Below the pieces are notes generated by a model that worked only from the letters and a program-made list of their open reading frames with translations, was not told the DNA's origin and made no database searches. A stretch of 64,000 nucleotides of DNA from an uncultured Acidobacteriota bacterium (GTDB taxonomy: Bacteria > Acidobacteriota > Blastocatellia > Pyrinomonadales > Pyrinomonadaceae), in assembly GCA_963785125.1 (NCBI GenBank), contig CAWATU010000004.1, positions 51,260-115,259 of the forward strand. Reading direction: 5' to 3'. Both the position numbers and the translations under genes were made by a program. Below are positions 9,526 through 60,971 of the stretch, piece by piece. Numbering within the stretch: the stretch's first letter is position 1; each line of letters starts with the position of its first letter.

Positions 9526-9607
9526 AGAGGTTAGAGACCAGTCAGGCCGGGGGTCAGTTAGGACGATAACTCCTAACTGACCCCCGGCCTGACGGTCTCT
9601 AACCTTT
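9526..9607. repeat. long hairpin with heptamer-periodic arms (GGTTAGA type)
   Basis: ~36-bp stem with one bulged A and a 7-nt loop (CGATAAC). It fills the whole spacer between convergent stops at 9522 and 9610. Confidence 0.85.
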
Positions 9608-9609
9608 AT

Positions 9610-11196
9610 TCAGTTGACGAGCGCGCGCTGGCGGAGTGCGTGGCGGAAGAGTTGAGCATCGCGCCCCTGCGTGTTGGGCGACCAGGTGGCGCGCATCGCG
9701 TGCACGCCGGTCGTGTCCGGGGCGAGGTGAAGGCTGTAGGTCTCGCGCGCCCGGGGCTCGTAGACGACGTAGCGACGCCCCTCCTGCGCGCCGTCGGACG
9801 GGCGCGCGCCCTCACAGATGATCTCGTCGTAGCCGTCGCCGTCGAGGTCTGCGACCTCCGCCGTCCATCCCGCGCCGCGGAAGCCTTCGACATCGAGCGC
9901 CACGCTCTTCGTCAACGCATAGCCCCCGCGCCCGGCCGCGCGCTCGATGACGAGCAGCGTCGCCATCCCGTCCGAAGGGTCTGCCGCGACCGCCGCCACG
10001 ACCTGCCCGGCGCCCGTCCCGACGAGCTTCACGTCCGAGACGCGTCCGCGCGAGACCGAAGCGGCCACGCGCCACGCGCCTTCACGCGTGAGTTGTGCGG
10101 ACTCCGCGCGTCTCGCCTTGCGGTCCCGGCGCGGCATGAGCGCCGCCTTGACCGCCGCAGGGTCGCGCGCGACTTCGGCCAGCGCGTCCGTCTTCGCCGC
10201 GCGCGCAGTCCACGCGACCGCCACGGTGACCAACATCGCGAAGAGCGCGAAGAGCGTGACCACGCGCGTGAACGTGTAGCGGCCGGAGTCGAGCGCGCCG
10301 ATGGTTCCGGCGAAGGGCTCGGCCTCGACGCCCAAAGGGATGGTGACGCGGCGCGCGCGCTCGATTGATTGCTCGACCAACCGGCACGCCTCGGCCGCGG
10401 TCGTCGGCCGGTGCGCCGGGTTCTTCGCGAGCAGTGTGTGGACGGCGAGCGCCAACGCACGAGGGAGGTCGGGTCTTAAAGAGAGAAGGGCCATCGGCTG
10501 CGCCGTCGCCTGCTTGACGAGCACGACCGACGAGAGTTGATCGATGAAGGGCGGGCGCCCGGCCAACATCTCGTAGAGCAGAACGCCGACGCTGTAGAGG
10601 TCTGATGCGGGCCCGACGCGGTGGCCGAGGCACTGCTCGGGCGACATGTAGCGCGGCGTGCCGATGATGAGGCCCGACTCGGTCGTCGCGTGCGTGCGCG
10701 TCATGTCGGTCGAGTCCTGCAAGACCTTGGCGATGCCGAAGTCGAGCACGCAGACGCCGCGCTCGTTGATGATGATGTTCGACGGCTTGAGGTCGCGGTG
10801 GACGATGCCCAACGCGTGTGCTTCCGACAGCACTTCACAGATTTCCGACGCGACTCGCACGGCGCGCTCGGGCTCGAACTGCCCCTCGCGCGCCAGCGTC
10901 TCGGCGAGCGTCGAGCCCGCGACGTACTCCATGACGATGAAGGGACGGCCGTCGGCCAGATGCCCTGCGTCGAAGATCATCGCCGCGCGCGGGTGCTTGA
11001 GCCGCGCCATCGTCCGCGCCTCGCGCATAAAGCGGTCGGCGATTTCGGGATGCGCGGCAAACTCCTGTTTCAGGATTTTAATGGCTACGGGGCGTTCGAG
11101 CCCCAGGTGGGAGGCACGGTAAACCGTGCCCATGCCGCCCCGGCCGATCTCGCACTCGACGCGAAACCGGCCCGCGATAATCTGGGGGGTGTCCAT
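9610..11196 (-). CDS. Ser/Thr protein kinase with TM segment and FG-GAP/VCBS-like C-terminal region
   Basis: Hanks motifs GRGGMGTVY, AIK, HRDLKPSNII, DFG and SPE; C-terminal DLDGDGYDE. Start set to ATG 11196 (MDTPQII). The upstream 90 codons of the track ORF run into the IS terminal repeat. Confidence 0.85.
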   Translation of the reverse strand: MDTPQIIAGRFRVECEIGRGGMGTVYRASHLGLERPVAIKILKQEFAAHPEIADRFMREARTMARLKHPRAAMIFDAGHLADGRPFIVMEYVAGSTLAETLAREGQFEPERAVRVASEICEVLSEAHALGIVHRDLKPSNIIINERGVCVLDFGIAKVLQDSTDMTRTHATTESGLIIGTPRYMSPEQCLGHRVGPASDLYSVGVLLYEMLAGRPPFIDQLSSVVLVKQATAQPMALLSLRPDLPRALALAVHTLLAKNPAHRPTTAAEACRLVEQSIERARRVTIPLGVEAEPFAGTIGALDSGRYTFTRVVTLFALFAMLVTVAVAWTARAAKTDALAEVARDPAAVKAALMPRRDRKARRAESAQLTREGAWRVAASVSRGRVSDVKLVGTGAGQVVAAVAADPSDGMATLLVIERAAGRGGYALTKSVALDVEGFRGAGWTAEVADLDGDGYDEIICEGARPSDGAQEGRRYVVYEPRARETYSLHLAPDTTGVHAMRATWSPNTQGRDAQLFRHALRQRALVN

Positions 11197-11433
11197 CTCC
11201 TGACCCTCTCGTTCGGGAAAGCAGGGTCGCTGCGGACGGCGCGCACTTTTCTCACTTCTCGACGCGGGGCAGCAGAGAGAAGAAGAGGGGCCGCGGCCGA
11301 GCGCCACGGGTGAAACCTGACTGGGACAGTTGTAGGGAGAAACGATTCGCCCGACCTTCCGACGCAGGCGGGCGAGTGGAGAGTGTAGCATTTCTGCCGC
11401 GCCGCGCAAGAGTTTTTCCGCGGCCGGAAGGCT

Positions 11434-13743: not shown

Positions 13744-13815
13744 GGTGAATGGTGAATAGTAAATGGTAAATGGTTAAGCCAACTTCCATTCACCATTTAC
13801 TATTCACCATTCACC
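13744..13815. repeat. long hairpin, GGTGAAT-heptamer family (copy 1)
   Basis: 30-bp arms (GGTGAAT GGTGAAT AGTAAAT GGTAAAT GG) with one mismatch; loop TTAAGCCAACTT. The stop codon of the 13800..14756 gene lies inside the right arm. Confidence 0.9.
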
Positions 13816-14756
13816 ATATCAGGCACCCAGAAGGTCTGGCCGGCGGATTCGACGCGGCGGAGGCCGCGCGCGGGCAGCTCGCGCTCGGGGAGACCGAGGT
13901 AGGTGAAGTGCGGCAGGTCGCTCAGGACGGTCTGGAACCAGCCGTGGCGCCCGAGCAGCGCCCCGACGCGCGCTTCCTGAAACTCCTCGATGTCGATGGC
14001 GAGCATGGCGAGATGCTGCGAGGCGCCGGGCGCGGCCACCGACTGGAGGATGCTCTTGTCGAAATACTTGCTGAAGAAAACGCCGTCGCTCTCAAGCTCA
14101 AGCACGGCCGCCGCCTGCTCGCGCAGAGGGAGCCCGCGCAGGCGCTCGGCCTCCGCGCCGTCGAGCCGCCCCGCCGCGCACCAGTGTTCGAGCGCCGGGT
14201 CGCAGCGCGAGCGCCAGAGCCGCAGCGAGTCGGCGTAGCTGCGCCGCCCCGCCTCGCTCCCGCCGCGCGGCGTGATGCGCAGCCCCAAGTAGGCCGCCTC
14301 CTCACGCGCGGCCAGCAGCGCGCCCAATGCGACAGGCTGCAACTCGATAACGGCCCCGTTCAGGACTTCGGCCCGCCAGCCCGCCGCGCGCTGGAAACGC
14401 TCGACCGCCTCCTCGCTCTCAAGCACGCAGGCGTCGGGCAGTGCGACGCCCTCGGCGACGAACATCGCGCCGTACTCTTCGAGCACGCGGCGCGTCAGCA
14501 TATCGCCGGCCGGACAGAACTTCTCAAGGCTCAAGCCCCTCCGCCCGAGCGCACGCCCGAGCGCCGCGTGGAAGGGCGAAGCATCTGCGCCGCGCTTGCT
14601 CGCCGCGCAGGCGTCCTCTCGCTTCCCAAACTCTTCGACGGACAAGTCCGTGGGTTCTCCTCTCGGCGCGCCGCGGAAGGCCGGGGCTTGTCCCCGCCGG
14701 CGTCGTGTGGTAACACGCAGGGTCGATTGTAAACGAACGGGGGCGGGCGCTGACAA
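13800..14756 (-). CDS. VanY/M15-like metallopeptidase-fold protein (tentative)
   Basis: H-x6-D (SQHLAMLAID) and a later His (LPHFTY) resemble the Zn ligands of M15 D-Ala-D-Ala carboxypeptidases. No obvious signal peptide. Start uncertain. Confidence 0.5.
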   Translation of the reverse strand: MSAPAPVRLQSTLRVTTRRRRGQAPAFRGAPRGEPTDLSVEEFGKREDACAASKRGADASPFHAALGRALGRRGLSLEKFCPAGDMLTRRVLEEYGAMFVAEGVALPDACVLESEEAVERFQRAAGWRAEVLNGAVIELQPVALGALLAAREEAAYLGLRITPRGGSEAGRRSYADSLRLWRSRCDPALEHWCAAGRLDGAEAERLRGLPLREQAAAVLELESDGVFFSKYFDKSILQSVAAPGASQHLAMLAIDIEEFQEARVGALLGRHGWFQTVLSDLPHFTYLGLPERELPARGLRRVESAGQTFWVPDMVNGE

Positions 14757-14773: not shown

Positions 14774-15133
14774 ATGAGTCGGCTCAACAAATTTCAGGAG
14801 ATACACGCACAGTACCGCCGGCACGGCTGGCGGCTCGCGCGCGTGCTGGCGCGGCCCGAGTCGCTCGCCGAGATGCGCGGCCGCGGCGACGCCGCCGCGA
14901 CGTTCGAGGGCGTAGCCGCGGCCGAGTCGGACGTGGACGCGATGTGGTTCTCGCGCCCCTCCGCGGAAGGGCGCGAGGCTTGGGAGCTGCGCCTCGTCGG
15001 CGACACGCCCTACGCGCTCTTCGAGCTGTTCGAGCCCGACGAAGAGGAAGAGGAGCGCGAAGACGTGCGCCGCGAGATGGAGGCGCGACTGCGCGAGTAC
15101 GTCGCGCCCGGAACGCAGAACGAGGAACGTTGA
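14774..15133 (+). CDS. small acidic hypothetical protein
   Basis: 119-aa ORF divergent from the previous gene. The last ~7 codons and the stop are contributed by the left arm of the downstream hairpin. Confidence 0.5.
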   Translation: MSRLNKFQEIHAQYRRHGWRLARVLARPESLAEMRGRGDAAATFEGVAAAESDVDAMWFSRPSAEGREAWELRLVGDTPYALFELFEPDEEEEEREDVRREMEARLREYVAPGTQNEER

Positions 15134-15192
15134 AGGATGAACTGAAAGCCCCTCGCCTTCAGTTCATCCTTCAACGTTCCTCGTTCTGCGTT
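15112..15192. repeat. long perfect hairpin with heptamer-periodic arms (AACGCAG type)
   Basis: 35-bp perfect stem (AACGCAG AACGAGG AACGTTG AAGGATG AACTGAA) with an 11-nt loop, between convergent stops at 15133 and 15198. Confidence 0.9.
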
Positions 15193-15197
15193 GATAC

Positions 15198-16199
15198 CTA
15201 ACCCCTACTCCGCCCGATCTTGACGGGAATCTCGATCTGCTCCGCCCCGCGCACGACGGTGACGGGGACGGTCGAGCCGGCCAACGCCTCGGCAATGCGG
15301 TAGCGGAGGTCGCCGGGGGTGCGAATGAGGTAATCGCCGAACTTGATGACGATGTCGCCCTCCTTGAGCCCCGCGATGTCGGCCGGCTCGTTGCGGTTCA
15401 CGTCGTCCAGCTCGACGCCGTAGATGTTCATGTTCGGCACCTGCACGCGCGCGCCGACATCAATGCCAATGACGCCGCGGCCGCCCGGCCGCTGCTCGAA
15501 CATCCTCATACCCGGCACATCCTTCTCCGCGCCCGGCGTCAGCTTGGTGCTGCCGGGCACGTTGTCGCGGATGTAATCGACATCGACGGGTTTGCCGACG
15601 GGCGTGTCGCCGAGAATCCGCCGCATGTCGTCGGCGTTCCGCACGTCCTTCCCGTCGAACCTCTTGATGATGTCGCCGCCGATGAGTCCGGCGCGCAGGA
15701 GCGGCGTCTCCGGCCCGGCGATGCCCTGAATCAACGCGCCGCCGCCCGGGGCCGTCTCGAAGCCGTCAACCCCCAGGAAAGACCTTTCGGCTCGTGGCAC
15801 GGCGGCCCCCCCGCGGCGCCCCATCATTGCGAGCGGCAGCAGCCCGCCCACGATCAGCATGACCGCAATGATCGTCACCCACAGCCAAACGCCGCGCACG
15901 GGGCGGCACATCTTCGCCAGTTTCGAGGTCGAGCCCTGCGCCTGTTGGCCGCCCATCGCCGAGGCAGAGCCGAACGGCTGGATGGGCGCGGCGCCCCAAG
16001 TCTGGCGCGCCTGAAAGTGGTCTGTGGCAGGCGACGGCGTCGGCGCGGCCGTCGGCATCGACGCGGCGTCGAAGCGCTGCGTGGGGACGTACTCTTCGAC
16101 GCCCTCGCCGAGACGATAGCCGCACCTGCGGCAGAAACGCAGCCCGGCGACGAGCGTCGCCCCGCAGCTAGGGCAGTTGACCATGTTTTCAGCTCGCAT
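15198..16199 (-). CDS. zinc-ribbon, single-TM protein with two PDZ domains
   Basis: CPSCG..FCRRCG, TM VWLWVTIIAVMLIVGGLL, and PDZ-like segments (AGLIGGDIIKRFDG; AGLKEGDIVIKFGD). Start is ATG 16199 or 16184. The longer track ORF is unsupported. Confidence 0.75.
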   Translation of the reverse strand: MRAENMVNCPSCGATLVAGLRFCRRCGYRLGEGVEEYVPTQRFDAASMPTAAPTPSPATDHFQARQTWGAAPIQPFGSASAMGGQQAQGSTSKLAKMCRPVRGVWLWVTIIAVMLIVGGLLPLAMMGRRGGAAVPRAERSFLGVDGFETAPGGGALIQGIAGPETPLLRAGLIGGDIIKRFDGKDVRNADDMRRILGDTPVGKPVDVDYIRDNVPGSTKLTPGAEKDVPGMRMFEQRPGGRGVIGIDVGARVQVPNMNIYGVELDDVNRNEPADIAGLKEGDIVIKFGDYLIRTPGDLRYRIAEALAGSTVPVTVVRGAEQIEIPVKIGRSRG

Positions 16200-16475: not shown

Positions 16476-16694
16476 TTGGAAGTAACCAAGGCCCTCGCGG
16501 CGCTCCAGCCGCTCTACGGCAAGGACAACGTCGAGATCGTCACCGAGACGGGCGCGCGCGTCCGCGGCGTCGTCCGCAGCCTCAAACAGACGCAGGCGCT
16601 CACACGCCCCAGCGTCAAGATCGAACGCCCCGACGGCGAAGTCGTCAAAATTCACTTCTCAGCCATCACCGAGATCATCGACCACAACCGTTGA
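16476..16694 (+). CDS. small hypothetical protein
   Basis: 72 aa with a TTG start, preceded by AGGGAGG. Confidence 0.5.
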   Translation: MEVTKALAALQPLYGKDNVEIVTETGARVRGVVRSLKQTQALTRPSVKIERPDGEVVKIHFSAITEIIDHNR

Positions 16695-16696
16695 AA

Positions 16697-16817
16697 AGCC
16701 GTGAACCGTGAACCGTCAACCGTGACCAGAGAAAATGGGTTCTTCCTCTGGTCACGGTTGACGGTTCACGGTTCACGGCTCTTTCTGGTCACGGTTTACG
16801 GTTCAAGGTTTACGGTG
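16697..16817. repeat. long perfect hairpin, CGTGAAC-heptamer family (copy 1), plus an extra third arm
   Basis: 35-bp arms at 16697-16731 and 16746-16780 (CGTGAAC CGTGAAC CGTCAAC CGTGACC) with a 14-nt loop. An additional same-sense arm-like segment lies at 16785-16817 (CTGGTCACGGTTTACGGTTCAAGGTTTACGGTG). Confidence 0.9.
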
Positions 16818-16866
16818 TTACAGTATCGGCCCGTCGGCCGCCTCGGGGCCGCGGGAAGAGTTTTGA

Positions 16867-17514
16867 ATGATGACGATTGAGGATTTCGGAGCGCGCGTGG
16901 CGAGCGTGTGGCAGGGCTTGAGGCCCTCGACGCGCAGCCTGGTCGAGCGCGCCCTCTCGACGCCGGCGCCACTTCAGCAGGGCCCGGCCGCCACCACCGC
17001 CACGGCCTCACGCCGCGAAAGCATCTACGACGCGCGCTCCGAGTGGGAGTTGAGCCGGCTGCTGGCCGCGCTCGACGAGCGCGCCGCCGAGGTCGGCGCC
17101 GACACACTCAGCGCCGAGCAGTCGCGCGACCTGCTCCGCATGACCGAGACCTGCGCCGCCGTGCTCAACCGCGAGGCGCGCTCGTCCGAAGTCTTCGCAC
17201 AGTTGCTTGAGCGCGCGCTGCGCGTCAAAGACTACGCGCGCGTGGACGAGATCGCCGACGTGATGACGGCGCGCCTCGCCCCGAGCGAGTTGTGCGAGAC
17301 GGCGCGTCACTTCAACCCGGCCGTCCGCGCCGTCGCGCAGGAGGCTTTGCTGCAACTGCCGACCGGCATCCTCGTCGCGCTGCTCGGCGACCCCGTGGAC
17401 GCCGAGACCGCGCGCAACGCGCTCGAATCCCAGGCCGACGAGTACGAGTCCGAAGAGGCGCGCATCGTCGTCACCGCCCTCCAACAGGTCGAAGACGCCG
17501 AAGACGATTTCTAA
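16867..17514 (+). CDS. hypothetical protein (helical, possibly HEAT-like)
   Basis: 215-aa ORF with protein-like composition. No domain recognised. Confidence 0.5.
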   Translation: MMTIEDFGARVASVWQGLRPSTRSLVERALSTPAPLQQGPAATTATASRRESIYDARSEWELSRLLAALDERAAEVGADTLSAEQSRDLLRMTETCAAVLNREARSSEVFAQLLERALRVKDYARVDEIADVMTARLAPSELCETARHFNPAVRAVAQEALLQLPTGILVALLGDPVDAETARNALESQADEYESEEARIVVTALQQVEDAEDDF

Positions 17515-17522
17515 GAAGGCAA

Positions 17523-17601
17523 AAGGCAAACTTCAAAAAGCAAAAGGAGGATGAGAAACACGCTGCTTCTCATCCTCCTTTTGCTTTTTGAAGTTTGCCT
17601 T
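17523..17601. repeat. long perfect hairpin, AAGGCAA-type heptamer arms
   Basis: 35-bp perfect stem with a 9-nt loop. The right arm overlaps the ispH stop codon (17600-17602). Confidence 0.9.
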
Positions 17602-18445
17602 AACTTTCGCCTATCTCTTTCAAGCGTGTGACGACCTGTTCGATGAGCCAGTTGGGCGTCGAGGCGCCGGCGGTGACGCCGACGCGTTGGGCGCTGGCGA
17701 GGTCGGCGGGGTCGATCTCTTCGGGCGTCTCGATGAGGAAGCTGCGCTCGCACTGCTCCTTGCAGACCGAGAGCAGCTTGAGGCTGTTCGAGGAGTGCTT
17801 GCCGCCGATGATGTAGAAGGCGTCCACCTCACCCGCGAGCGCGCGCGCCGCGTCCTGCCGGTCGCGCGTCGCCGAGCAGATGGTGTTGACGACCTGCGGC
17901 TCCGAGTCGGACTTGGCGCGCACGGCCTCCGCCGCTTCGAGGAAGGTCGAGAGCTTCAGAGTCGTCTGCGAGACGACGAGCGGCGCGTGCAGCGGCGGAA
18001 GCGCCGCCACCTCCGAAGCGTCGCGCACGACGCGCGTGTGCGCGGGCGCGTAGCCGACGACGCCGATCATCTCGGGGTGGTCGGGGTTGCCGACGAGAAC
18101 CACGTCGCGCCCCTGCTCGGCGGCGCGCTCGGCCAGCTTTTGAACTTTCGTGACGAACGGGCAGGTGGCGTCGATGACGCGCTCAGCGCGTGCTTCCAAA
18201 TCGCGCTGCACCTGCGGCGTGACGCCGTGCGCGCGGATGACGGCCGTCTCGCCTGAGGCAACGTCGTCGGGCGCGTCGATGGTGCGCACGCCGTCGGCTT
18301 CGAGGCGTTGAATCTCCTGCGTGTTGTGGATGAGCGGCCCGAGCGTGCGCACGGTCGCGCCCTCCGAGAGCGCCCCCTCGACCATCTCGACGGCGCGCTC
18401 GACCCCGAAACAGAACCCGTACTCTTCGGCCAGCAGAACTTGCAT
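17600..18445 (-). CDS. ispH: 4-hydroxy-3-methylbut-2-enyl diphosphate reductase
   Basis: Full-length LytB/IspH: GFCFGVERAV, RAHGV, ATCPFVTKV, VSQTT, NTICSAT, GGKHSSNS. Confidence 0.95.
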   Translation of the reverse strand: MQVLLAEEYGFCFGVERAVEMVEGALSEGATVRTLGPLIHNTQEIQRLEADGVRTIDAPDDVASGETAVIRAHGVTPQVQRDLEARAERVIDATCPFVTKVQKLAERAAEQGRDVVLVGNPDHPEMIGVVGYAPAHTRVVRDASEVAALPPLHAPLVVSQTTLKLSTFLEAAEAVRAKSDSEPQVVNTICSATRDRQDAARALAGEVDAFYIIGGKHSSNSLKLLSVCKEQCERSFLIETPEEIDPADLASAQRVGVTAGASTPNWLIEQVVTRLKEIGES

Positions 18446-18446: not shown

Positions 18447-18534
18447 GTATTTTCGATTTGCGATTTCAGATTTTTGATTTTGATTTTTAGGCCGGGGCTT
18501 CAAATCGAAAATCAAAAATCTGAAATCAAAAATT
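18447..18534. repeat. AT-rich hairpin of GATTTnn heptamers immediately upstream of ispH
   Basis: Core stem 18462-18486 / 18502-18527 (~25 bp, one bulge) with the loop containing GGCCGGGGC. It fills the spacer between stop 18533 and the ispH start 18445. Confidence 0.85.
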
Positions 18535-18826
18535 ACCCCACGCCTTCGGGCGGCGGGGTCTGTGTGATCGGCTCGGGGGCGGGCGTTCGTTCGCAGCGAC
18601 TCCGCCACTCCTCGCGCAGCCGCTCGGCTGCGGCGAGACTGTCGTCAATCCAGCCGATGTTCTTCTCGGCGAACCAGCGGACTCCGCCCCAGAAGTTTTT
18701 CTCGAACTCGCCCAACTGCCGCGCCGCGTCCGAAGGCAACACCGCGAAAGACGCGTCGCACAGGAAACGCACCGCGTCGCAGAGGGGGTTGCCGGTCTTG
18801 TATCTCGAATCGTTCGTGTCAGCCAT
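18533..18826 (-). CDS. small hypothetical protein
   Basis: Start moved to ATG 18826 (MADTNDSRYK), preceded by GAAGGAGG. Confidence 0.5.
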   Translation of the reverse strand: MADTNDSRYKTGNPLCDAVRFLCDASFAVLPSDAARQLGEFEKNFWGGVRWFAEKNIGWIDDSLAAAERLREEWRSRCERTPAPEPITQTPPPEGVG

Positions 18827-18896
18827 TAGTGGAGAACCTCCTTCTTCCACAAACCATACGGCCGAAACGCCACGCACGTTCCGCGCCAGACAATCT

Positions 18897-19012
18897 TAGA
18901 GAAGGCAGAAGGCAAAGGCAAAGGGGGAAAGGGCGAAAGTAGGACGAGAGACCGCGCGATTCTCATCCACAACTTTTGCTTTTTGCCTATGGCCTTTGCC
19001 TTTTGCTTCTCT
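18897..19012. repeat. imperfect inverted repeat of AAGGCAA-like units
   Basis: Left arm AGAGAAGGCAGAAGGCAAAGGCAAAGGGGGAAAGGGCGAAAG. Right arm ...TTTTGCTTTTTGCCTATGGCCTTTGCCTTTTGCTTCTCT. Related to the 17523 hairpin. Confidence 0.6.
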
Positions 19013-19013: not shown

Positions 19014-19637
19014 TCAGTCCGATTGGCCGAGCGCGCGCTTCACGGCGGGCCACATCTCGAAGGCCCAGAACTCGTAGCCCTCGTCCGAGGGATGAAAGCC
19101 GTCCGGCGAGAAGAATTCGGGATGCGTCGGGATGACTTCGGCGCTCTTCTCAAAGGTGTCGGCGAGGTGCAGACGGTGGCGCGCGGCCGCGTCGGCGATG
19201 TGCTCGTTGAAGAGGATGAGACGGTGGCGCGCCTCTTCGCGCAGGAAGGCGGGGACGGCCGGCGCGTGCGAGATGTCCGGCAGGTTCGAGACGACAACGG
19301 GCGCCTCCGTCTGCGCGCGCAGACGCGTGACGACCTCTTCAAAGTTGTGCGCGAACTGCTCCGGCGTGGCCTGCCGCACGAGGTCGTTGATGCCGATGCC
19401 GAGGGTGACGAGCGAAGGCGTCGCTTCCCCCACCCGCCCGACCTGCGCGCGCAAAACGTCGCCGGTCGTCGCGCCGCTCACACACAGATTGACGAGCCGC
19501 GAGCCCGGCCGCACACGCTCGATGCGCTCGAACAGACGCGCGACGTAGCCGCCGCCCTTCCGCGCACCGACGCCCACACCCGTCGAATCCCCCAGCGCCA
19601 AGTAGACGATTGGCTCACCTTTAGCTTCACTATTCAT
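19014..19637 (-). CDS. SGNH/GDSL hydrolase family protein
   Basis: Block I GDS (LALGDSTGVG), GINDL, and DGFHPSDEGY (the catalytic D-x-x-H region). Confidence 0.8.
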   Translation of the reverse strand: MNSEAKGEPIVYLALGDSTGVGVGARKGGGYVARLFERIERVRPGSRLVNLCVSGATTGDVLRAQVGRVGEATPSLVTLGIGINDLVRQATPEQFAHNFEEVVTRLRAQTEAPVVVSNLPDISHAPAVPAFLREEARHRLILFNEHIADAAARHRLHLADTFEKSAEVIPTHPEFFSPDGFHPSDEGYEFWAFEMWPAVKRALGQSD

Positions 19638-30312: not shown

Positions 30313-31530
30313 ATGAGCGCCAACAGCAGCAGCACCTCGAACAACCCGGTCGTGCAAGCCGTCCTCTCGGGCGCCGCGCCGCAGCCGGCGCGCATGGCGG
30401 CCGCGCGCGGAATGCTGCCCGTCCCGCAGGACGTGCTGTTGGAGTTGCTCGTCGCGCTGCGCGCCGACTCGGACGAGTCGGTGGCGCGCGCCGCCGAAGA
30501 GACGCTCACCAACCAGGATGCGGTGACGCTTCTCGGCGTCGCCTCCGCGCAGGAGACGGCGCCGGCCGTGCTCTCCTACCTCGCGGAGCGGACGGGTCTC
30601 GCGCGCGAGGTGCAGGAGTCGCTCGCGCTCAACGCCTCGACGCCCGACGAGGCCGTGGCCGCGCTCGCGCGCGTGACGGCCGAGGGCGCGGTGCTCGAAC
30701 TCGTCTCCCTCAACCAGCAGCGCCTCATCCGCACGCCCGCCATCATCGACGCCGTGCTCGCCAACCCCGCGCGCACCTCCGACGCCGACCGGCGCGTGCG
30801 CGAGACGCGCCGCGAGTTCTTCGAGAAGGAGCGCGGCGCCCGTCAGGTCGCCGACGAGATGCGTGCGCAGGGGTTGGGCGCCGCCGCCGAGTTCATTGAG
30901 TCGGCCGAATCGTTCGGCGCCGAAGTGGGCCTGAGCCTCGACGATGCGTGGCTCATCGCGCAGCACATCGAGGTCTCGGACGTTGACATCGATGACTCGT
31001 GGCTCCCATCCGAGAGGTTTGAAGACTTGCTCGACGAGACGTTCGAGCAGCGGCAGGCCGCGGCCGAGCGCCTGGTGGCGGAGGCGCTTGCCGAGGGCGC
31101 CACAGCGGCCCCGCCCGAGCGCGTCGCGCTCATCCGCCGCATCATGCTGATGAAGGTCAAGGATCGTATGAAGCTCGGGATGAAGGGCGACCGCGAGGCG
31201 CGCTCGATCCTCATCCGCGACCCGAACAAGGTCGTCGCGCAGGCCGTCATCAACAACCCGCGCATCACCGACCAAGAGGTCGAGGCCATCGCCGCCATGC
31301 GCACGGTCAACGCCGACGTGCTGCGCCTCATCGCCATGAACCGCCACTGGGCGCGGCAGTACCCGGTCATCACTAACCTCGCGCGCAACCCGCGCACGCC
31401 GCTCCCGACCGCGATGTCCATTCTCCCGCGCCTCCACGCCAAAGAGCTGAAGGCGCTTGGCCAGAACCGCAACGTCTCCGACGCCGTCCGACGCCAGGCG
31501 CTCCGCCTCGCCACCGTCCGCGGGCAGTAA
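30313..31530 (+). CDS. hypothetical helical-repeat protein
   Basis: 405-aa ORF with repeated NP(R/A)T..-type helical units (HEAT/LRV-like). The opposite-strand ORF 29758..31593 is judged to be a shadow. Confidence 0.55.
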   Translation: MSANSSSTSNNPVVQAVLSGAAPQPARMAAARGMLPVPQDVLLELLVALRADSDESVARAAEETLTNQDAVTLLGVASAQETAPAVLSYLAERTGLAREVQESLALNASTPDEAVAALARVTAEGAVLELVSLNQQRLIRTPAIIDAVLANPARTSDADRRVRETRREFFEKERGARQVADEMRAQGLGAAAEFIESAESFGAEVGLSLDDAWLIAQHIEVSDVDIDDSWLPSERFEDLLDETFEQRQAAAERLVAEALAEGATAAPPERVALIRRIMLMKVKDRMKLGMKGDREARSILIRDPNKVVAQAVINNPRITDQEVEAIAAMRTVNADVLRLIAMNRHWARQYPVITNLARNPRTPLPTAMSILPRLHAKELKALGQNRNVSDAVRRQALRLATVRGQ

Positions 31531-31531: not shown

Positions 31532-31613
31532 AAGGCGGTGAATGGTAAATAGTGAATGGTGAATGGAAGTCGGCTTATCCATTCACCATTCACTATTTAC
31601 CATTCACCGCCTT
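31532..31613. repeat. long perfect hairpin, GGTGAAT-heptamer family (copy 2)
   Basis: 36-bp arms with loop AAGTCGGCTTA, which is the reverse complement of the copy 1 loop apart from about 1 nt. The right arm overlaps the stop of the 31612..32145 gene. Confidence 0.9.
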
Positions 31614-38692: not shown

Positions 38693-38786
38693 ACTTTAAG
38701 ACCTTTATCCGAATGAATTTGGCCCCGCCCGGGCGGAGCAGCGGGGCCGGTTCTATTACGATTTGAGGGGAGAAAATGTTTTGGGA

Positions 38787-38885
38787 GCAGATGGCAGCAG
38801 GCAGTTAAAAACCTTTCTAATCACGAACCCTGCGGTTGTCATCAACAACGTCCGCATCGCGGAGCCCGCTGCCTACTGCCTACTC
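38787..38885. repeat. GGCAGTA-family element, degenerate copy C
   Basis: Left arm GCAGATGGCAGCAGGCAGTTAAAA, right arm GCTGCCTACTGCCTACTC, ~60-nt spacer. The right arm overlaps the mnmA stop. Confidence 0.55.
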
Positions 38886-40213: not shown

Positions 40214-40687
40214 ATGAGTGAAGAGAGCACAAGTCGCCTCGAAAACGCGATGGCGAAGCTGGCGGACACCTCGGCGCAACACGACGAGCGGCTCGCCGCG
40301 CACGAAGAGAGGATGACCGCGCACGAAGAGAGGATGGCCGCGCATGAAGAGCAACTCGCGGCGCACAAAGAGCAGCTCGCCGTGAACAAAGAGCGGCTCG
40401 CCGCAATAGAGCGTACGAATGAGATACTCAAAGCGTTGGCCGCCGACGCCCATCAGTTGCTTGCCAACGTGCAGCGGCGCGTCGGAGGTTTCGAAAAGGT
40501 CAACGCCACTTTGGTCGAACTGCTCGGGCGCCATCACGAGGGGGTAACGGAGATGCGGGCGGCGCAGGCCAACGCCGACGCCAAGATTGCCCTCCTCGCG
40601 GAGTCGCAGGCGCATACCGACAGGCGGCTCGATGCGTTGATTGACATTGTGCGGACACGCTTTAACGGCCAGTCTGAAAGTAGTTGA
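40214..40687 (+). CDS. coiled-coil hypothetical protein with tandem heptad repeats
   Basis: AQHDERL AAHEERM TAHEERM AAHEEQL AAHKEQL AVNKERL AAIERTN, encoded by 21-bp tandem DNA repeats at 40274-40420. Confidence 0.6.
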   Translation: MSEESTSRLENAMAKLADTSAQHDERLAAHEERMTAHEERMAAHEEQLAAHKEQLAVNKERLAAIERTNEILKALAADAHQLLANVQRRVGGFEKVNATLVELLGRHHEGVTEMRAAQANADAKIALLAESQAHTDRRLDALIDIVRTRFNGQSESS

Positions 40688-45561: not shown

Positions 45562-45853
45562 AGCTTTTCACAGGTTGCGAGGAGGCCGCGCGCACATCCG
45601 CCACACGCGCACGCGGCCTCACGCCCCGGCGTGGATCGACGGGGCCGCGGCACAGCCTCCCTTCAGACGTGCCGGCGCTTATCGCCAACCAAAATACTCA
45701 TGTGGTATCTTCCCTCCCGATCTAGTCTTTGAAACGTAAGGCAACGGGTCGGATGCGTAGCGTAGCTCACCCTCAACCGCCAGAGAGATGAGCATCGCCG
45801 TTGAGCATGAGAGGTCTCTACTCACGGCGAATCAGTTGCGCAGACGCATCCTA

Positions 45854-45867
45854 CTATCAGTTGATAG
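45854..45867. promoter_or_regulatory. 14-bp perfect palindrome CTATCAGTTGATAG upstream of the XRE gene (candidate operator)
   Basis: Lies ~40 nt upstream of ATG 45907. An AGGAGG RBS follows. Coordinates +/-2. Confidence 0.4.
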
Positions 45868-45906
45868 CAAAAGCAAGGGCCAAATGTTGTCAGGAGGTGA
45901 CTCCTG

Positions 45907-46182
45907 ATGGCGCGACGCCCGGCCCCGAAGCGTTTAGGTGAAAAGCTCTTACAAATCAGGACGGCTTTAGGGTTGAGCCAGACAGGGATTGTCGAGAGGC
46001 TTGACTACGGTGAATCTCCGCTCTACGCCGCGCAGATATCAAACTTCGAGCAGGGTAAGCGTGAGCCACCGTTACAGTTGCTTCTGGCTTACGCGAGACT
46101 GGCGAACATACCGCTGGAACTTTTAGCTGACGACAAGCTAGACCTGCCCGACGAACTACCTGCTCGACGCACGCGTCGTTAA
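45907..46182 (+). CDS. XRE-family helix-turn-helix transcriptional regulator
   Basis: LGEKLLQIRTALGLSQTGIVERL...ISNFEQGKREP is an HTH_3 pattern. 91 aa, in a lower-GC islet. Confidence 0.8.
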   Translation: MARRPAPKRLGEKLLQIRTALGLSQTGIVERLDYGESPLYAAQISNFEQGKREPPLQLLLAYARLANIPLELLADDKLDLPDELPARRTRR

Positions 46183-46230
46183 TTCTTCGACGCGGGACGT
46201 AAATTCTCAGACACGAGTAACAAAAGTTGT

Positions 46231-46481
46231 CAGCCGGCGCGTTTTTCCCTGCCGGTGCGGGCATTTTCCTCGGCGGTGCGCGCACATTTCTCGGCAGTGC
46301 GCGCTTCAGACACCGTGGTGCGTGCATTTTCTGGTCGGTGCGCGTCACAGCGTGGCGGTGCGCGTCGAGATTCGAGGCGGTGCGCGTTTCAGACGCGGCG
46401 GGCGCCTTAATTCCCTGCAAGTGCGTGTAAAGTTCGAGCCGTGCGGACTTAAACGAAGCGCGTGCGGGTTCAGAGCGCGGA
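46231..46481. repeat. degenerate tandem array, ~12 units of ~21 bp (core GGTGCGCG)
   Basis: Core positions are 46235, 46254, 46275, 46296, 46317, 46337, 46357, 46379, 46401, 46420, 46440 and 46461, with spacing of 19-22 bp. The ORFs across it (46227..46430 +, 45956..46420 -) look like repeat artefacts. Confidence 0.75.
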
Positions 46482-47153
46482 CTTGATGACGGCGGCGAGG
46501 GCTTCGGTCTCGCGTTGGATGCAGTGGCGCGTGTCTTCGCCGGGGAGGGGGGCGGGGAGGCGCGGGGGGTGGAAGACGAGCTCGACGCGGCCGGGGCGTG
46601 GGAGGCGCTGGCCGCGCGGCCAGACGCGTTCGCCTCCGCGGATGGTGACGGGAAGGACGGGCACGTCCGCCTCCATGGCGAGGCGGACGGCGCCGGCCTT
46701 GAAACGCGAGAACACGCCGTCGGCGTAAGCGCGCTGCCCTTCGGGGAAGATCATCACGGCGCCGCCCGCGCGCAGCCATTGGAGCGAGCGGCGGTGCGCG
46801 GTCGGGTTGCCGCGGTCGAGGACGATGGGCCACGCGCCCAGAAGCTCCAAAGCCTTCCCCACGAGCGGCCACTTGAACGCCTCGTTCCAGGCGAGATAGC
46901 GGACGGGGCGGTTGACGTGCGAGCCGACCCAGAAGGGATCGACGTAGGTCTGGTGGTTGGCGGCGATGACGAGGCCACCCTCCGCGGGGATGTGCTCAAG
47001 CCCGCTCATGGAGATGCGCCACAGCGCGCGCGAGAAGACACGGATGGCCGGCCGCATCGCGTCCAGAAGCCACTGCGGGGCAGGGCGCGGCTCCGGCGTC
47101 TCAGCGCCGCGCCGCCGCCCTTCGTCCCCGCCCGTGTCTGCCGCCCTGCTCAA
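46470..47153 (-). CDS. 1-acyl-sn-glycerol-3-phosphate acyltransferase family protein
   Basis: H(X)4D motif AANHQTYVDP, and FPEGQR. Confidence 0.85.
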   Translation of the reverse strand: MSRAADTGGDEGRRRGAETPEPRPAPQWLLDAMRPAIRVFSRALWRISMSGLEHIPAEGGLVIAANHQTYVDPFWVGSHVNRPVRYLAWNEAFKWPLVGKALELLGAWPIVLDRGNPTAHRRSLQWLRAGGAVMIFPEGQRAYADGVFSRFKAGAVRLAMEADVPVLPVTIRGGERVWPRGQRLPRPGRVELVFHPPRLPAPLPGEDTRHCIQRETEALAAVIKSAL

Positions 47154-47422
47154 AACGATTCCCTGCCCTCTCCCTCTTCGTCTCTCGTTCCCACGGATTC
47201 GAGCGAGGCGACCTTAATCTCCTCCCACCACTCAGGGATGTCGCGCTCGTTGAGCGCGTCCTCGTTCCAGCACTCGCACCGCGAGCACTCGAAGCCCGTG
47301 TAGGCGCGCGCCTCCGCCTTCGTCAGCGACAGACGCGTCCGCGCGTTGCACGCGTGGTCGCCGCACCAGCGTTCGACCTCGACGAGCAGCAACTCACGCG
47401 TGTTCACGATCCGCTTACCCAT
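47150..47422 (-). CDS. small Cys-rich hypothetical protein
   Basis: 90 aa with C..C / C..C pairs (WCGDHAC, ECSRCEC). 4-nt overlap with the downstream acyltransferase gene. Confidence 0.5.
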   Translation of the reverse strand: MGKRIVNTRELLLVEVERWCGDHACNARTRLSLTKAEARAYTGFECSRCECWNEDALNERDIPEWWEEIKVASLESVGTRDEEGEGRESF

Positions 47423-47435
47423 AAGTTGAAGTACT

Positions 47436-47504
47436 GAGTGCTGAAGACTGAGGACTGAGTTGAAGACAACGAGTTCTTCACTCAGTCCTCAGTCTTCAGC
47501 ACTC
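47436..47504. repeat. long hairpin with nnACTGA heptamer arms
   Basis: ~30-bp stem (GAGTGCTGAAGACTGAGGACTGAGT(T)GAAGA) with one bulge and an 8-nt loop, between stop 47510 and start 47422 on the same strand. Confidence 0.9.
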
Positions 47505-47509
47505 AATAC

Positions 47510-48262
47510 TCATTCTATCCCTTCCAGCGGCCACTGCCGGTCGATGAATTCGAGGTGGAGGCGCGGGATGCCATCCGCGCCCGAACGCGACGCGCGCACG
47601 GCGGCGACGATGGAGAGTCCCGTCTCCGTGCTGGTCAGTCGCACGAAGCGCCCGCGCTCGACCTGAAGCATCGTCCAGACGGCCGCGCCGCGGCGGCTGA
47701 TGTTCTCCGTTACCGTCTGCTCGCTGGCCTCCACGCGCCCCTCCGCGTCGAAGACCTCCAGCCGCACGCCGAGCGCCATCTGGAGCCGCGTCAGCTCGGA
47801 GCGCTCGCCGACCGACTGCTGCTCGGCCTCCTTCAGACGCCAGAGGTTGTCCTCCGCCGAGACCGAGGTGGCCTCGTAGAGCGTCGAAGGGTCGCGGACG
47901 TAGCTCGCCGGTGGGTGCTTGCCCGTGAACGCCACCCCGACCTCGTAGCGCACGCCGCCCGCCTCCTCGCCCGCGAACTCCGGCCGCACCGAGAGGTGGC
48001 AGACCAGCGCCCAGACACGGTACTGGTCTTCGATGTGGTCGAAGCAGCGGAGTTGGCGCGGCATCGGCATCGTCAGGTGCAGGAGCCGGCCGCGCTCGGT
48101 CGGGCGCGTGAGCGGGAAACGCGCGCCGAACGGTGTCACGTCCACCAGCCGCGACATCTCCGTCCACTCGTGACCGGCCGTCTCGCGGCATTGGACGCGG
48201 AGGGGGAGCGCCAGCTTGATGCGCTCGCGCACGCGGTTCCGTTTGTGGTCTGACTCGGACAC
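47510..48262 (-). CDS. PilZ domain-containing protein (tentative, two PilZ-like halves)
   Basis: RVRER (RxxxR) followed by DVTPFGA (D-x-S/T-x-x-G-like). The second half shows a similar pattern (ENISRRGA). Confidence 0.6.
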   Translation of the reverse strand: MSESDHKRNRVRERIKLALPLRVQCRETAGHEWTEMSRLVDVTPFGARFPLTRPTERGRLLHLTMPMPRQLRCFDHIEDQYRVWALVCHLSVRPEFAGEEAGGVRYEVGVAFTGKHPPASYVRDPSTLYEATSVSAEDNLWRLKEAEQQSVGERSELTRLQMALGVRLEVFDAEGRVEASEQTVTENISRRGAAVWTMLQVERGRFVRLTSTETGLSIVAAVRASRSGADGIPRLHLEFIDRQWPLEGIE

Positions 48263-59393: not shown

Positions 59394-60169
59394 GCGTGTT
59401 CTGACTCAATCCCCCCTGTAGATTCTTTCGGCGCGAACTCACCTTCGACCCAGACTTCGCCGTCCTCGAAGAACTCTTTCTTCCAGATGGGGACGGTGCG
59501 TTTGAGTTCGCGGATGGCCCACTCGCAGGCTTCGAAGGCGGCGCGGCGGTGCGGGGCGCTGACAGAGATGACGACGGAGGTCTCGCCGATCTCGGTGCGG
59601 CCGGTGCGGTGGACGATGCCGATGTGCGCGATGTCGAAACGACGGTGCGCTTCTTCACCGAGGCGTTGCATCTCGGCGAGCGCCATCGGGGCATAGGCTT
59701 CATAGACGAGGTGGAGCGTGCGGCGCCCGCGCGTCCACTCGCGCGCGTAGCCGTCGAGCGTGACGGTCGCGCCGCAGCGGGAGGGTACGACGCGGCGCGC
59801 AACGGCGCCCACATCAATCGGCTCGGTCGTCAGCTCGAAGAAGTCTTCGGCGTCGTCCGCCTTTGGGGGCTCGCCGTCGCCGCCGCTCACTGGCGGGAAG
59901 AGCGCGAGTTCGTCGCCGTCCTCCAACTCCACGTCGAGGTCGCGCGCGTACCCCTGGTTGACGGCGACGAGGAGCGAAGAGCCAAAGCGGACGAGGTCTG
60001 GATACTCTTCGAGTACGCGCGCAAAGGCAGAGCGCGCCGTCGCGCCCGGGGCGAGCGTCAAAAGGGCCTCGTCGGCCGCGGCCTCGCGCGCCGCGCCGAA
60101 GAAGAGAACGCGCACGCGCACCTCGCGCGACTCCGCGGCCTCGCTCAGCCTGTCCGTTTCCTGCGTCAT
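59390..60169 (-). CDS. MoaD-MoaE fusion (molybdopterin synthase sulfur-carrier plus catalytic subunit)
   Basis: N-terminal ThiS/MoaD-like module ending ...LALFPPVSGG, then MoaE (HRTGRTEIGETSVVISVSAPHRRAAFEACEWAIRELKRTVPIWKKE). Confidence 0.85.
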   Translation of the reverse strand: MTQETDRLSEAAESREVRVRVLFFGAAREAAADEALLTLAPGATARSAFARVLEEYPDLVRFGSSLLVAVNQGYARDLDVELEDGDELALFPPVSGGDGEPPKADDAEDFFELTTEPIDVGAVARRVVPSRCGATVTLDGYAREWTRGRRTLHLVYEAYAPMALAEMQRLGEEAHRRFDIAHIGIVHRTGRTEIGETSVVISVSAPHRRAAFEACEWAIRELKRTVPIWKKEFFEDGEVWVEGEFAPKESTGGIESEHA

Positions 60170-60870
60170 TCTTCGAGGTCGATCTTCTTGCCGGCGTGGC
60201 CGTTGCCACGCGCCAGCTCGTGCGTGCGCGCGCGCTCCTCGTAGGCGGTGACGGCCTGCGCGAGCATCGTGTGGAGGCGGCGCAGACGCTCGGAGGTCGA
60301 GCGCGTCTCAAGCAGGCGCTGCTTCGTCTCGGCGTCCATCTCGACGACGGCCGCGACGAGGAAGGAGAGGCGCTCGGGGTCGTCCTGCGGGAGTTCGGGG
60401 AGCGCGCCGCGCTCCTCGTTGGCGGTGCGCATCGCGCGCGCGATGCGCATGAACAGCTCGGCCACCTCTTCGGCCCGGCGCGCGACGACGCTCGCGTCCT
60501 CCTCCTCGTCCTCGAAGAACTCGACGCGCGCGACGAGGTACGGGTCGCCGCGCTCGACGTACTCCTCGACGCGGTAGCGCGCCGCCCCGACCGTCAGGAT
60601 GTTCGAGCGGCCGTCGGGCAGCGGCTGCACCTCGACGACCTCGGTCGCGCAGCCGACGTGCCCCACGGGCGGGCGGTCTTCTGAGACTGCGTCGGAGACG
60701 AAGTAAGAGAGGCCGAAGAGGTTGTTCGCGGCGCGCACGTCGGCCAACATGCGGCGGTAGCGCTCCTCGAAGATGTGGAGCGGCAGCGGCACGCCGGGAA
60801 AGAGCACGAGCGGCAGCGGGAAGATCGGCAACTCCCGCACGCCGCGCACCTTGTCGAGGGCTTCAGACAT
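60166..60870 (-). CDS. LON N-terminal (substrate-binding) domain protein
   Basis: LPIFPLPLVLFPGVPLPLHIFEERYRRM. No AAA+ or protease part. Confidence 0.8.
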   Translation of the reverse strand: MSEALDKVRGVRELPIFPLPLVLFPGVPLPLHIFEERYRRMLADVRAANNLFGLSYFVSDAVSEDRPPVGHVGCATEVVEVQPLPDGRSNILTVGAARYRVEEYVERGDPYLVARVEFFEDEEEDASVVARRAEEVAELFMRIARAMRTANEERGALPELPQDDPERLSFLVAAVVEMDAETKQRLLETRSTSERLRRLHTMLAQAVTAYEERARTHELARGNGHAGKKIDLEE

Positions 60871-60876
60871 AAAAGT

Positions 60877-60971
60877 CGTGAACCGTGAACCGTAAACCGT
60901 GACAAGTAAGAACAGGCTTTAATCCTGTCACGGTTTACGGTTCACGGTTCACGCTCCTTTCACGGTTTACG
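60877..60971. repeat. long perfect hairpin, CGTGAAC-heptamer family (copy 2), plus an extra half-arm
   Basis: 28-bp arms at 60877-60904 and 60926-60953 (CGTGAAC CGTGAAC CGTAAAC CGTGACA) with a 21-nt loop. An extra CACGGTTTACG lies at 60961-60971. Confidence 0.9.

Follow-up and report, generated by a model that had tools for sequence, protein, structure and literature searches.

Hairpins built from inverted heptanucleotide arrays at gene ends in a Pyrinomonadaceae chromosome, and their relation to known bacterial repeats

Bacterial repeats with a heptanucleotide unit have been on record since about 1990 (the short tandemly repeated repetitive sequences, STRR, of cyanobacteria), and repetitive extragenic palindromic (REP) elements are known for roles in mRNA 3'-end protection and partial termination. 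This report concerns a 64,000-nucleotide stretch of DNA from an uncultured soil bacterium of the Pyrinomonadaceae (the window: contig CAWATU010000004.1, positions 51,260 to 115,259, of assembly GCA_963785125.1), in which intergenic spacers carry long, nearly perfect hairpins whose arms consist of tandem degenerate heptamers. Heptamers are the most over-represented long simple sequence repeats (SSRs) in many bacteria, according to the Mrazek 2007 survey as relayed in PMC4679880 and PMC4692102. TAACTGA arrays are common to Beggiatoaceae, Cyanobacteria and Bacteroidetes and are mostly positioned so as to end 1 nt ahead of a start codon (PMC4679880); in Nostoc, the expression of recF and recO is influenced by heptamer repeats (bioRxiv 10.1101/2022.06.06.494920), and a heptamer SSR of Haemophilus acts through an RNase III-targeted 5' untranslated region (PMC12721329). 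The closest described arrangements are the 70-75 convergent pairs of GGGAATC arrays in each Xanthomonas genome, which are capable of forming stem-loops (Rehm et al. 2015, PMC4692102), and, in Geobacter metallireducens, arrays of hepta-, octa- and nonanucleotide units that form pairs across opposite strands (PMC2700814). REP elements sometimes provide stop codons (PMC3733652). With inverted heptamer arrays already reported from Xanthomonas and Geobacter, the suggestion of an earlier model-made note on this DNA (the sequence-only reading) that such hairpins were undescribed as a class overreaches; they are not a new class, and represent the Pyrinomonadaceae form of the widespread heptamer repeats of bacteria. 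Nothing on heptamer repeats in Acidobacteria was found in the literature searched.

The hairpins are real, frequent and family-wide. All ten that the sequence-only reading had placed in spacers between 9526 and 60953 were recovered by a repeat search and by an independent scan, and none of 20 dinucleotide-preserving shuffles of the window reached a score of 14, attained in the window by 14 hairpins, 11 of them scoring at least 20. Window hairpins have arms of 20-41 nt that are 95-100% complementary, loops of 3-26 nt, and predicted RNA folds whose free energies (ΔG) lie between -29 and -77 kcal/mol and whose z-scores run from -6.5 to -17.8. The proposed build of the arms from tandem heptamers was borne out in eight of the ten by lag-7 autocorrelations of 0.55-0.85 (p<0.01 by shuffling), and is weak in the hairpins starting at 9526 (0.39, p=0.1) and 36804 (0.42), the unit of the latter being 21 nt long (hairpins are named here by their start positions). 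Tandem Repeats Finder (TRF) reported period 7 in seven of the ten and period 21 in 36804, and at least seven heptamer unit types occur within the window.

Relatives were obtained as 80 syntenic loci gathered by IspH search and ten closer loci (all loci carry L numbers) found by look-up of the 72-amino-acid (72-aa) protein encoded at 16476-16694, an exact-protein look-up with IspH having returned no record; one relative, L201, has 94.6% DNA identity to the window over 10 kb. Genes were called by a gene finder that scores codon log-odds and had been trained on the sequences analysed here, and the calls were checked with tblastn. The family-wide scan of 1.24 Mb (window plus the 80 loci) yielded 124 hairpins scoring at least 18. 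Among the 97 with arms of at least 21 nt the best period was 7 in 59, and no other period was best in more than 10. Clearly heptameric hairpins number 65, with a median stem of 29 bp and perfect stems in 45, and comprise about 36 rotation-distinct unit types, including AACCGTG, ATTGCGG, AAGGATG, AGCAGTG, AAAAGGC, AGCTATT and AATGGTG. A GGG run is absent from all window hairpin units and from the commonest types (AACCGTG, ATTGCGG, AAACCGT, AAGGATG), and is present only in about six minor types, each seen one to three times. The 5' arms are purine-rich (A 0.35, G 0.32), and the same asymmetry extends into the loops, whose apex carries the motif AAGAC in 15 of the 65 hairpins against 1.5 expected, across different unit families; GAAGA and TGTCT are also enriched. 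This common apex points to a common core or a shared constraint. The apex motif can be written (G)AAGA(A/C)(A)...(T)GT(C/T)CTT(C), for example at 47461-47479 and 60905-60925 of the window and 11530-11546 of L018.

None of the 124 hairpins lies inside a gene. The heptameric ones are distributed over convergent (18), tandem (39) and divergent (7) spacers at densities of 0.54, 0.24 and 0.09 per kb of spacer, which approximate the 2:1:0 ratio of gene 3' ends, and the distance between stop codon and hairpin is 5 nt in the median (interquartile range -1 to 12). Five convergent window hairpins (9526, 15112, 17523, 31532 and 36804) fill spacers 64-117 nt long, and six of the 11 convergent window spacers are without one. 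The four stop codons said to overlap hairpins (13800, 15131, 17600 and 31612) do lie inside arms, at offsets of -16, -22, -2 and -2. Flanks are A-rich upstream (0.32) and T-rich downstream (0.35). Because the period is not a multiple of 3, any stop triplet of a unit falls in all three frames within 21 nt, and the palindrome gives the same 5' arm on both strands, so that both converging genes reach a stop-rich arm first. Stops in all three frames were present in 30 of the 65 5' arms, against 14.8 ± 2.8 in column-permuted arms (maximum 23 in 500), and in 8 of the 65 3' arms; support for the enrichment is moderate, and its rationale is plausible without proving selection.

Orthologous spacers hold different structures in different genomes. 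In the convergent ispH/g215 spacer, the structure AAAAGCCGCTCG-loop-CGAGCGGCTTTT, a bidirectional terminator, is present in about 20 relatives with ~81-86% IspH identity; it is the canonical type of A-tract, GC hairpin and U-tract found there in distant relatives. The same spacer is occupied in most closer genomes by hairpins of 18-41 bp, eight of them clearly heptamer-built (families AAAGGCA, CCGTAAA, GGCTAGG and GTGATAG), or alternatively by a GC-rich inner hairpin between GTAGACA or GAGGTTA arrays. Inner GC hairpins with arrays on either side are present in L001, L004, L009, L012 and L014. The convergent PDZ/g119 spacer is 4-23 nt long and hairpin-free in many genomes and 80-170 nt long with at least seven hairpin families elsewhere. 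The 72-aa protein is conserved up to ...IIDHN, and beyond that point the heptamer family differs by genome and provides the last codon and the stop. Between genomes with an identical 72-aa protein (85-90% DNA identity), whole spacers are swapped for another family while the flanks are conserved exactly to the start and stop codons; the GATTTTT hairpin at 18449-18533 is replaced by one of the TTAGCTG family in L202, L204 and L205. The CCGTGAA hairpin is retained at one orthologous site in at least seven genomes, with 3-5 units per arm, differing among genomes.

Two further kinds of palindrome were observed in the relatives. GC-rich inner palindromes of the forms ACAGCGCGGCTCTCATCA-N6-TGATGAGAGCCGCGCTGT and CAGCGGCGCCTTCGTCAA-N6-reverse complement recur at different spacers (L001 1656-1697, L009 ~10880-10925, L004 13435-13476, 10882-10923 and ~20700), where they sit between different heptamer arrays as a second layer of dispersed palindromes. 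A non-heptamer family, GTCAGAACCGCCTGCGGTAGCGGGCGGGT, which contains GTAG and has a REP-like look, is dispersed in more distant relatives (L024 9467-9546, L039 14975-15053, L066 6540-6615 and 18175-18253).

The two arms of a hairpin change together between close genomes, and it is because of this that stems remain perfect. Four hairpins compared between the window and L201 comprise 123 stem pairs, in which five compensated double substitutions were counted (G:C to A:T, C:G to A:T, A:T to G:C twice, and G:C to T:A) against about 0.2 expected from the observed 7% per-site change, together with four one-sided changes and two uncompensated doubles. Three of the compensated changes are in the 17523 hairpin. 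The 13744 hairpin has compensated changes relative to both L201 and L205, the latter independently having GGTTAAT/ATTAACC in place of the window's GGTGAAT/ATTCACC, and the 15112 hairpin differs from that of L201 by a mirrored substitution and a mirrored indel (AACGTTG/CAACGTT against AACGAGTG/CACTCGTT). In 12 aligned hairpins of the CCGTGAA family, double changes occur in 17 of 38 pairs, compared with 7.3 ± 1.9 after shuffling (0 of 500 shuffles reaching the observed count), and slid registers of the alignment pair at 35-42%. Covariation is modest in the wider metagenome set of the GGTRAAT family (Watson-Crick 0.55-0.90 against 0.45-0.61 expected) because contigs of intermediate GC content have imperfect or register-shifted arms.

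The hairpin past the 72-aa gene has kept what appears to be the trace of a new arm. Its 5' arm (16694-16734) is 95% complementary to a 3' arm at 16743-16783, with the two mismatches at the loop end, and 85% complementary to an outer arm at 16784-16822; L201 and L205 are without about 40 nt here, and their sole 3' arm aligns with the outer, degenerate arm of the window. The simplest reading of these alignments is that 16743-16783 would be the 5' arm duplicated in inverted orientation, with insertion at the loop. Intrastrand template switching is known from quasipalindrome mutagenesis (Ripley; Lovett laboratory) as a replication error that perfects an imperfect inverted repeat by arm copying, and its expected product is such an inverted duplication. 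It would also account for the mirrored substitutions and indels.

Complete units together with their loops are found again at loci that are not orthologous. One 72-nt unit is present twice, in opposite orientations, as the hairpins 13744-13815 and 31532-31613: both have 30-nt arms reading GGTRAAT GGTRAAT AGTRAAT GGTRAAT GG, with the A of the third unit in common, and after reverse complementation of one copy the loops agree at 10 of 12 positions. Hairpins 16697 (the inner part of 16694-16783) and 60877 have in common the arm, a non-repeat GTGACMAG inner stem and a partial extra arm past the hairpin, and the inner stem of 9526 resembles hairpins of the ispH/g215 spacer (S2) in L012 and L020. 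The 30-mer GGTRAATGGTRAATAGTRAATGGTRAATGG has exact matches in at least 120 metagenome contigs, with GC contents of 0.29-0.70 among the matches listed. Low-GC contigs hold it in long direct arrays, often beside arrays of GTGATAG, ACTGATA (equivalent to TAACTGA) and CTTACGG, and contigs of 0.5-0.7 GC hold inverted pairs, some nested as (GTGATAA)n(GGTAAAT)n-loop-complement. In L082, L138, L143, L150 and L170 (GC 0.31-0.46), GGTGAAT arrays directly adjoin other heptamers of the Pyrinomonadaceae type. As the unit families occur in contigs of very different GC content, they are not specific to Pyrinomonadaceae; the distinguishing mark of this lineage is the short paired arrangement beside stop codons.

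From the position of the hairpins, the replacement of a terminator in one orthologous spacer, the concerted arms and the dispersal, an account can be drawn whose chances we put at about even: the hairpins would be heptamer-SSR palindromes that serve as transcript-end hairpins, are kept perfect by arm copying and are able to spread. The transcript would fold into a very stable hairpin marking its 3' end, serving for bidirectional termination or as an obstacle to 3' exonucleases, and the purine-rich 5' arm, with its period not a multiple of 3, would offer stops in three frames, so that both converging genes would end cleanly. Arms would lengthen by 7-nt replication slippage and be made symmetrical again by intrastrand template switching (fold-back copying), and copies would reach new spacers by some further route. 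The sequence-only reading had left a choice between a self-propagating or templated repeat system and an RNA 3'-end or stability element. The two are not exclusive and each is partly supported, the former by arm-to-arm copying and by homologous copies at different loci, and the latter by the median 5-nt gap, the density in convergent spacers and the terminators in the same orthologous spacer.

Several findings weigh against this account. Termination or stabilisation is deduced from position alone. Most hairpins lack a clear U-tract, as had been noticed at the outset, and a simple terminator scan of 9-20 kb of the window, which takes in six of the ten hairpins first reported, passes only the inner part of 17523-17601; stems of 30-40 bp are also far beyond what termination requires. 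Seven of the 65 heptameric hairpins and the GGCAGTA elements 491 and 32144 (described below) are situated in divergent spacers or 5' leaders, which follow no gene end, and in some tandem spacers the hairpin ends 6-16 nt ahead of the next start codon, so that the element would have to contain a promoter if termination there were efficient. Stop-containing unit types are only modestly enriched (22 of 36, against 46% expected). The aligned sets were chosen as hairpins, so that the percentage of paired positions is partly built in. Sense-strand mismatches that are G·U-compatible exceed A·C mismatches by 9 to 3, which is not significant, and an argument for RNA-level selection from this comparison was dropped. 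Reading the TTCACG/TTTACG units of 3' arms as promoters stays speculation, a consensus scan having given no promoter-like site.

The main rival, which we consider possible and yet doubtful, is that the hairpins are selfish or neutral palindromic repeats, akin to REP elements, REPINs (REP doublets forming hairpins) or MITEs (miniature transposable elements with inverted repeats), tolerated at 3' ends without host function and either spread by a transposase encoded elsewhere or arising as a by-product of slippage and template switching. Homologous copies, loops included, in both orientations at non-orthologous loci would be expected of such repeats, as would a PDZ/g119 spacer that is hairpin-free in many genomes and filled by at least seven families in others, the complete replacement of spacers by another family between genomes 85-90% identical, and short-read contigs that break off inside a hairpin in the manner known from dispersed repeats; wherever an inner GC hairpin has persisted, the arrays may be without added effect. 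Several window spacers, however, hold the heptamer hairpin as their sole hairpin, at least seven genomes have the CCGTGAA hairpin at one and the same orthologous site, and about 36 unit types are hard to reconcile with one recognising enzyme. No transposase or REP-associated tyrosine transposase (RAYT) was found among the 50 window proteins scanned (Pfam, Y1_Tnp included), and the hairpins have no terminal motif in common, neither a GTAG nor a CGTC tag (cf. PMC3733652), GTAG occurring only inside GGCAGTA/GTAGACA units. Target-site duplications were not noticed in the close-genome alignments, in which they were not searched for systematically, and no clean empty site was found. Integron attC sites were considered and rejected, the neighbours being housekeeping genes in conserved synteny and the arms misfitting the core-site consensus.

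RNase III needs roughly two helical turns, which stems of 20-41 bp exceed, and tandem-spacer hairpins lie 6-16 nt from the next start codon. An element of RNA processing or translation coupling, acting through RNase III cutting or exonuclease stalling that would adjust how stable adjacent cistrons are relative to one another, or through the modulation of initiation by arrays at start codons, would suit these facts, the arm of the 32144 element that abuts the DUF2227 ATG, and the literature on TAACTGA (PMC4679880), Nostoc (bioRxiv 10.1101/2022.06.06.494920) and Haemophilus (PMC12721329). Such a function is nevertheless unlikely, since hairpin density peaks in convergent spacers, which have no downstream cistron, and no Shine-Dalgarno-like or other conserved motif was seen beside the start codons examined.

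Somewhat less probable again is that the arrays are the substrate or footprint of a dedicated machinery common to bacterial phyla, one possibility being a factor that reads RNA or single-stranded DNA at one heptad per subunit and determines transcript ends or translation, another an enzyme that both adds heptads and performs their fold-back copying. Such machinery would explain the occurrence of GGTRAAT, GTGATAG, CCGTRAR and ACTGATA in contigs of 29-70% GC, the constant period of 7 and the common apex AAGAC...GTCTT, and if it exists, Pyrinomonadaceae, with their short, paired arrays at stop codons, would be the most tractable group in which to find it. The omega protein of pSM19035, a ribbon-helix-helix (RHH) factor, binds contiguous WATCACW heptads, direct or inverted. 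Protein-binding sites in DNA of this RHH type, or for a global regulator as the Geobacter paired arrays have been read (PMC2700814), with hairpin potential incidental, would fit the strict period of 7, the 21-bp sub-repeats (two helical turns) in 36804 and 62455-62860, the reverse complement TATCACC/TATCACT of GTGATAG (the only unit family resembling the WATCACW consensus) and the presence of the same families in very different organisms, but are very improbable because the heptads drift and their variants are mirrored in the partner arm, which argues for base-pairing or arm copying over a heptad-reading protein, because about 36 unit types would demand many proteins, and because the arrays lie at the 3' ends of housekeeping genes and not at promoters.

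A second group of elements consists of inverted GGCAGTA arrays around a longer centre (Table 1). Their presence in divergent promoter regions, as claimed in the sequence-only reading, is correct for 491-620 and 32144-32271, and these divergent-spacer copies cannot terminate an upstream gene. In relatives, centres in tandem spacers are polar and, read in the direction of the upstream gene, begin with GGCTCCGC, contain GTTGAC and end with GGTTTTT, which fits a putative unidirectional terminator embedded between the arrays. At 62455-62860 (flanks 62427-62452 and 62864-62875), a tandem spacer of 680 nt contains an array in which a 21-bp unit with a TCTCSGAGA dyad and GTTGAC is repeated about 17-19 times, with higher-order periods of 42, 63 and 84 bp, and which is bracketed by inverted GGCAGTA-like arrays; this array may have come from amplification of the centre of an element flanked by GGCAGTA, or may consist of protein-binding sites. 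Two other repeats were noted in the window: a 21-bp repeat in six copies at 40280-40404, within the open reading frame (ORF) 40214-40687, where it would encode a 7-residue repeat, and 21-22-nt repeats at 46243-46387, within a convergent spacer of 908 nt (45562-46469) where no gene was called.

Table 1. Heptamer hairpins and GGCAGTA-type elements of the window (coordinates in window positions; a dot marks elements given without strand)
Feature	Coordinates	Strand	Units and fold	Setting
Hairpin	9526-9607	.	Core 9541-9593, reaching 9526-9607 with one bulge; outer units AGAGGTT-like, inner stem GGCCGGGGGTCAGTTAGGA; period 7 weak; ΔG -74, z -14	Between convergent genes 8797-9522 (+) and Ser/Thr kinase 9610-11196 (-)
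Hairpin	13744-13815	.	GGTRAAT family, 30-nt arms, lag-7 0.85	Provides last codons and TAG stop of gene 13800-14501 (-)
Hairpin	15112-15192	.	AACGAGG/AAGGATG units, lag-7 0.61, ΔG -66	Between convergent 14774-15133 (+) and PDZ protein gene 15198-16184 (-); stop 15131 inside
Hairpin	16694-16783	+	CCGTGAA family	Starts 2 nt past stop of 72-aa gene 16476-16694
Extra outer 3' arm	16784-16822	+	Older, degenerate; TCACGGT x9 by TRF	
Hairpin	17523-17601	.	AAAGGCA family, ΔG -63; inner core GGAGGATGAGAA/TTCTCATCCTCC then UUUUGCUUUUUG, resembling a canonical terminator	Between convergent 16867-17514 (+) and ispH 17600-18445 (-)
Hairpin	18449-18533	-	GATTTTT family, lag-7 0.66; first reported as 18462-18527	18462 hairpin starts 5 nt past stop of 97-aa gene 18533-18826 and occupies whole 87-nt spacer to ispH start, 16 nt away
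Imperfect long hairpin	18896-19012	-	AAGGCA units and GGACGAGAG core; ΔG -50, z -6.5	Directly past stop of GDSL lipase gene 19014-19637
Hairpin	31532-31613	.	GGTRAAT family, 100% complementary	Between convergent 30313-31530 (+) and DUF2227 31612-32145 (-)
Hairpin	36804-36885	.	Perfect 38 bp, 21-nt sub-repeat, ΔG -77	Between seryl-tRNA synthetase (35480-36772 +) and SppA (36890-38692 -)
Hairpin	47430-47510	-	ACTGAGG family, lag-7 0.67; apex GAAGACA...TTCTTC	4 nt past stop of 47510-48262, 12 nt ahead of 47150-47422 start
Hairpin with extra partial array	60877-60996	-	CCGTGAA-family hairpin 60877-60953, partial array 60942-60996; lag-7 0.81	Between genes 60978-62348 and 60166-60870
GGCAGTA inverted arrays	491-620	.	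64-nt centre	Divergent spacer upstream of CtpA-like peptidase gene; ends 67 nt before probable peptidase start 688
GGCAGTA inverted arrays	32144-32271	.	64-nt centre	Divergent spacer; one arm abuts ATG of DUF2227 (32145-32143)
GGCAGTA-type inverted arrays	38786-38887	-	~60-nt centre, in sense direction beginning GGCTCCGCG and ending GGTTTTT	Tandem spacer, MnmA stop to SppA start; array supplies MnmA TAG stop

The window has a GC content of 64-69% and contains the housekeeping genes ispH, secA, gyrA, serS, mnmA, dut and sppA. Its IspH matches metagenome-assembled genomes labelled Pyrinomonadaceae (Acidobacteriota) at 94% identity, and the window is part of a Pyrinomonadaceae chromosome; a plasmid origin was rejected, megablast giving no match. 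Two small genes of the window, both without a Pfam match, are conserved, that of the 72-aa protein (16476-16694, +) at 70-99% identity in about 57 Pyrinomonadaceae loci and that of a 97-aa protein at 18533-18826 (-), and both are masked in a longest-ORF reading by over-extended opposite-strand ORFs or by the length cut-off. As the 16697 hairpin starts 2 nt past the stop of the 72-aa gene, its placement in a divergent promoter spacer was rejected. The window held no tRNA or tmRNA genes and no Rfam 15 match at gathering score. In a permissive Rfam scan the hairpins matched only eukaryotic miRNA-precursor models at 25-46 bits, all below gathering score (for example 60875-60955, 15119-15185 and 17517-17609), owing to generic long perfect stems and not to homology. 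An assembly artefact was rejected, as independent assemblies, with contigs of 0.6-5 Mb among them, contain the hairpins too. The short-read contigs L206, L207 and L210 stop inside the hairpin, 27-52 nt past the stop of the 72-aa gene. Hairpins of this kind fragment short-read assemblies.

The lineage shows heptamer repeats in an unusually readable form, in which close genomes catch the concerted arms and a new arm. If the hairpins do mark transcript ends, a large and abundant soil clade would punctuate its transcripts with structures missed by terminator predictors, and the non-multiple-of-3 period would have a simple rationale in stops in every frame; if arm copying maintains them, they would be a natural case of template-switch palindrome repair upholding a genome-wide element family. 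In practice, they break short-read assemblies and mislead longest-ORF gene calls.

Compared with known systems, the hairpins share features with several. Bidirectional intrinsic terminators resemble them in convergent position, A-rich 5' and T-rich 3' flanks and occupation of the same orthologous spacer, and the AAAGGCA/TGCCTTT family (17523) looks like an expanded A-tract and U-tract around a GC core; the stems, however, are 20-41 bp long against the usual 5-14 bp, are moderately AT-rich and mostly have no contiguous U-tract, which in intrinsic terminators is 7-9 nt long and directly follows a short GC-rich stem, and some heptamer-hairpin copies stand in 5' leaders. With REP elements, bacterial interspersed mosaic elements (BIMEs) and REPINs they have in common that they are extragenic palindromes, dispersed and mosaic, and enriched at gene 3' ends and in convergent spacers, but they differ in having tandem-repeat arms, much longer perfect stems, no GTAG/CGTC tag and no RAYT in the window. 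Quasipalindrome mutagenesis predicts mirrored substitutions, mirrored indels and new inverted duplications such as are seen here, although it is known as a reporter hotspot in E. coli and not as the upkeep of a genome-wide repeat family.

The array pairs of Xanthomonas are likewise intergenic tandem heptamers in a genome of ~65% GC, with opposite-strand arrays close together and the repeat type kept at orthologous sites at variable length. They consist, however, of one G-rich unit studied for G-quadruplex formation, whereas about 36 mostly A/G-rich types occur here, those of the window without GGG, in arms that are short (3-5 units), nearly perfect and abut stop codons; concerted change of the two arms and loop homology between loci have not been reported for Xanthomonas. 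The Geobacter arrays are similar in having three to five tandem units per strand at variable distance and in being multicopy and intergenic, but are annotated as putative binding sites of a global regulator, and no link to stop codons or to hairpin perfection was described. As far as the sources cited above describe them, STRR, TAACTGA arrays and other long heptamer SSRs share with these hairpins the period of 7, intergenic location, many unit types and contact with start or stop codons, and GGTRAAT, GTGATAG, ACTGATA and CTTACGG occur also in low-GC metagenome contigs; the Pyrinomonadaceae arrays, like STRR, have at least three tandem 7-nt units, are intergenic with several types and vary in unit number. 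The long heptamer SSRs, on the same sources, form for the most part long direct arrays that often precede start codons, whereas nearly every array here has an inverted partner within 3-100 nt and is mainly linked to a stop codon.

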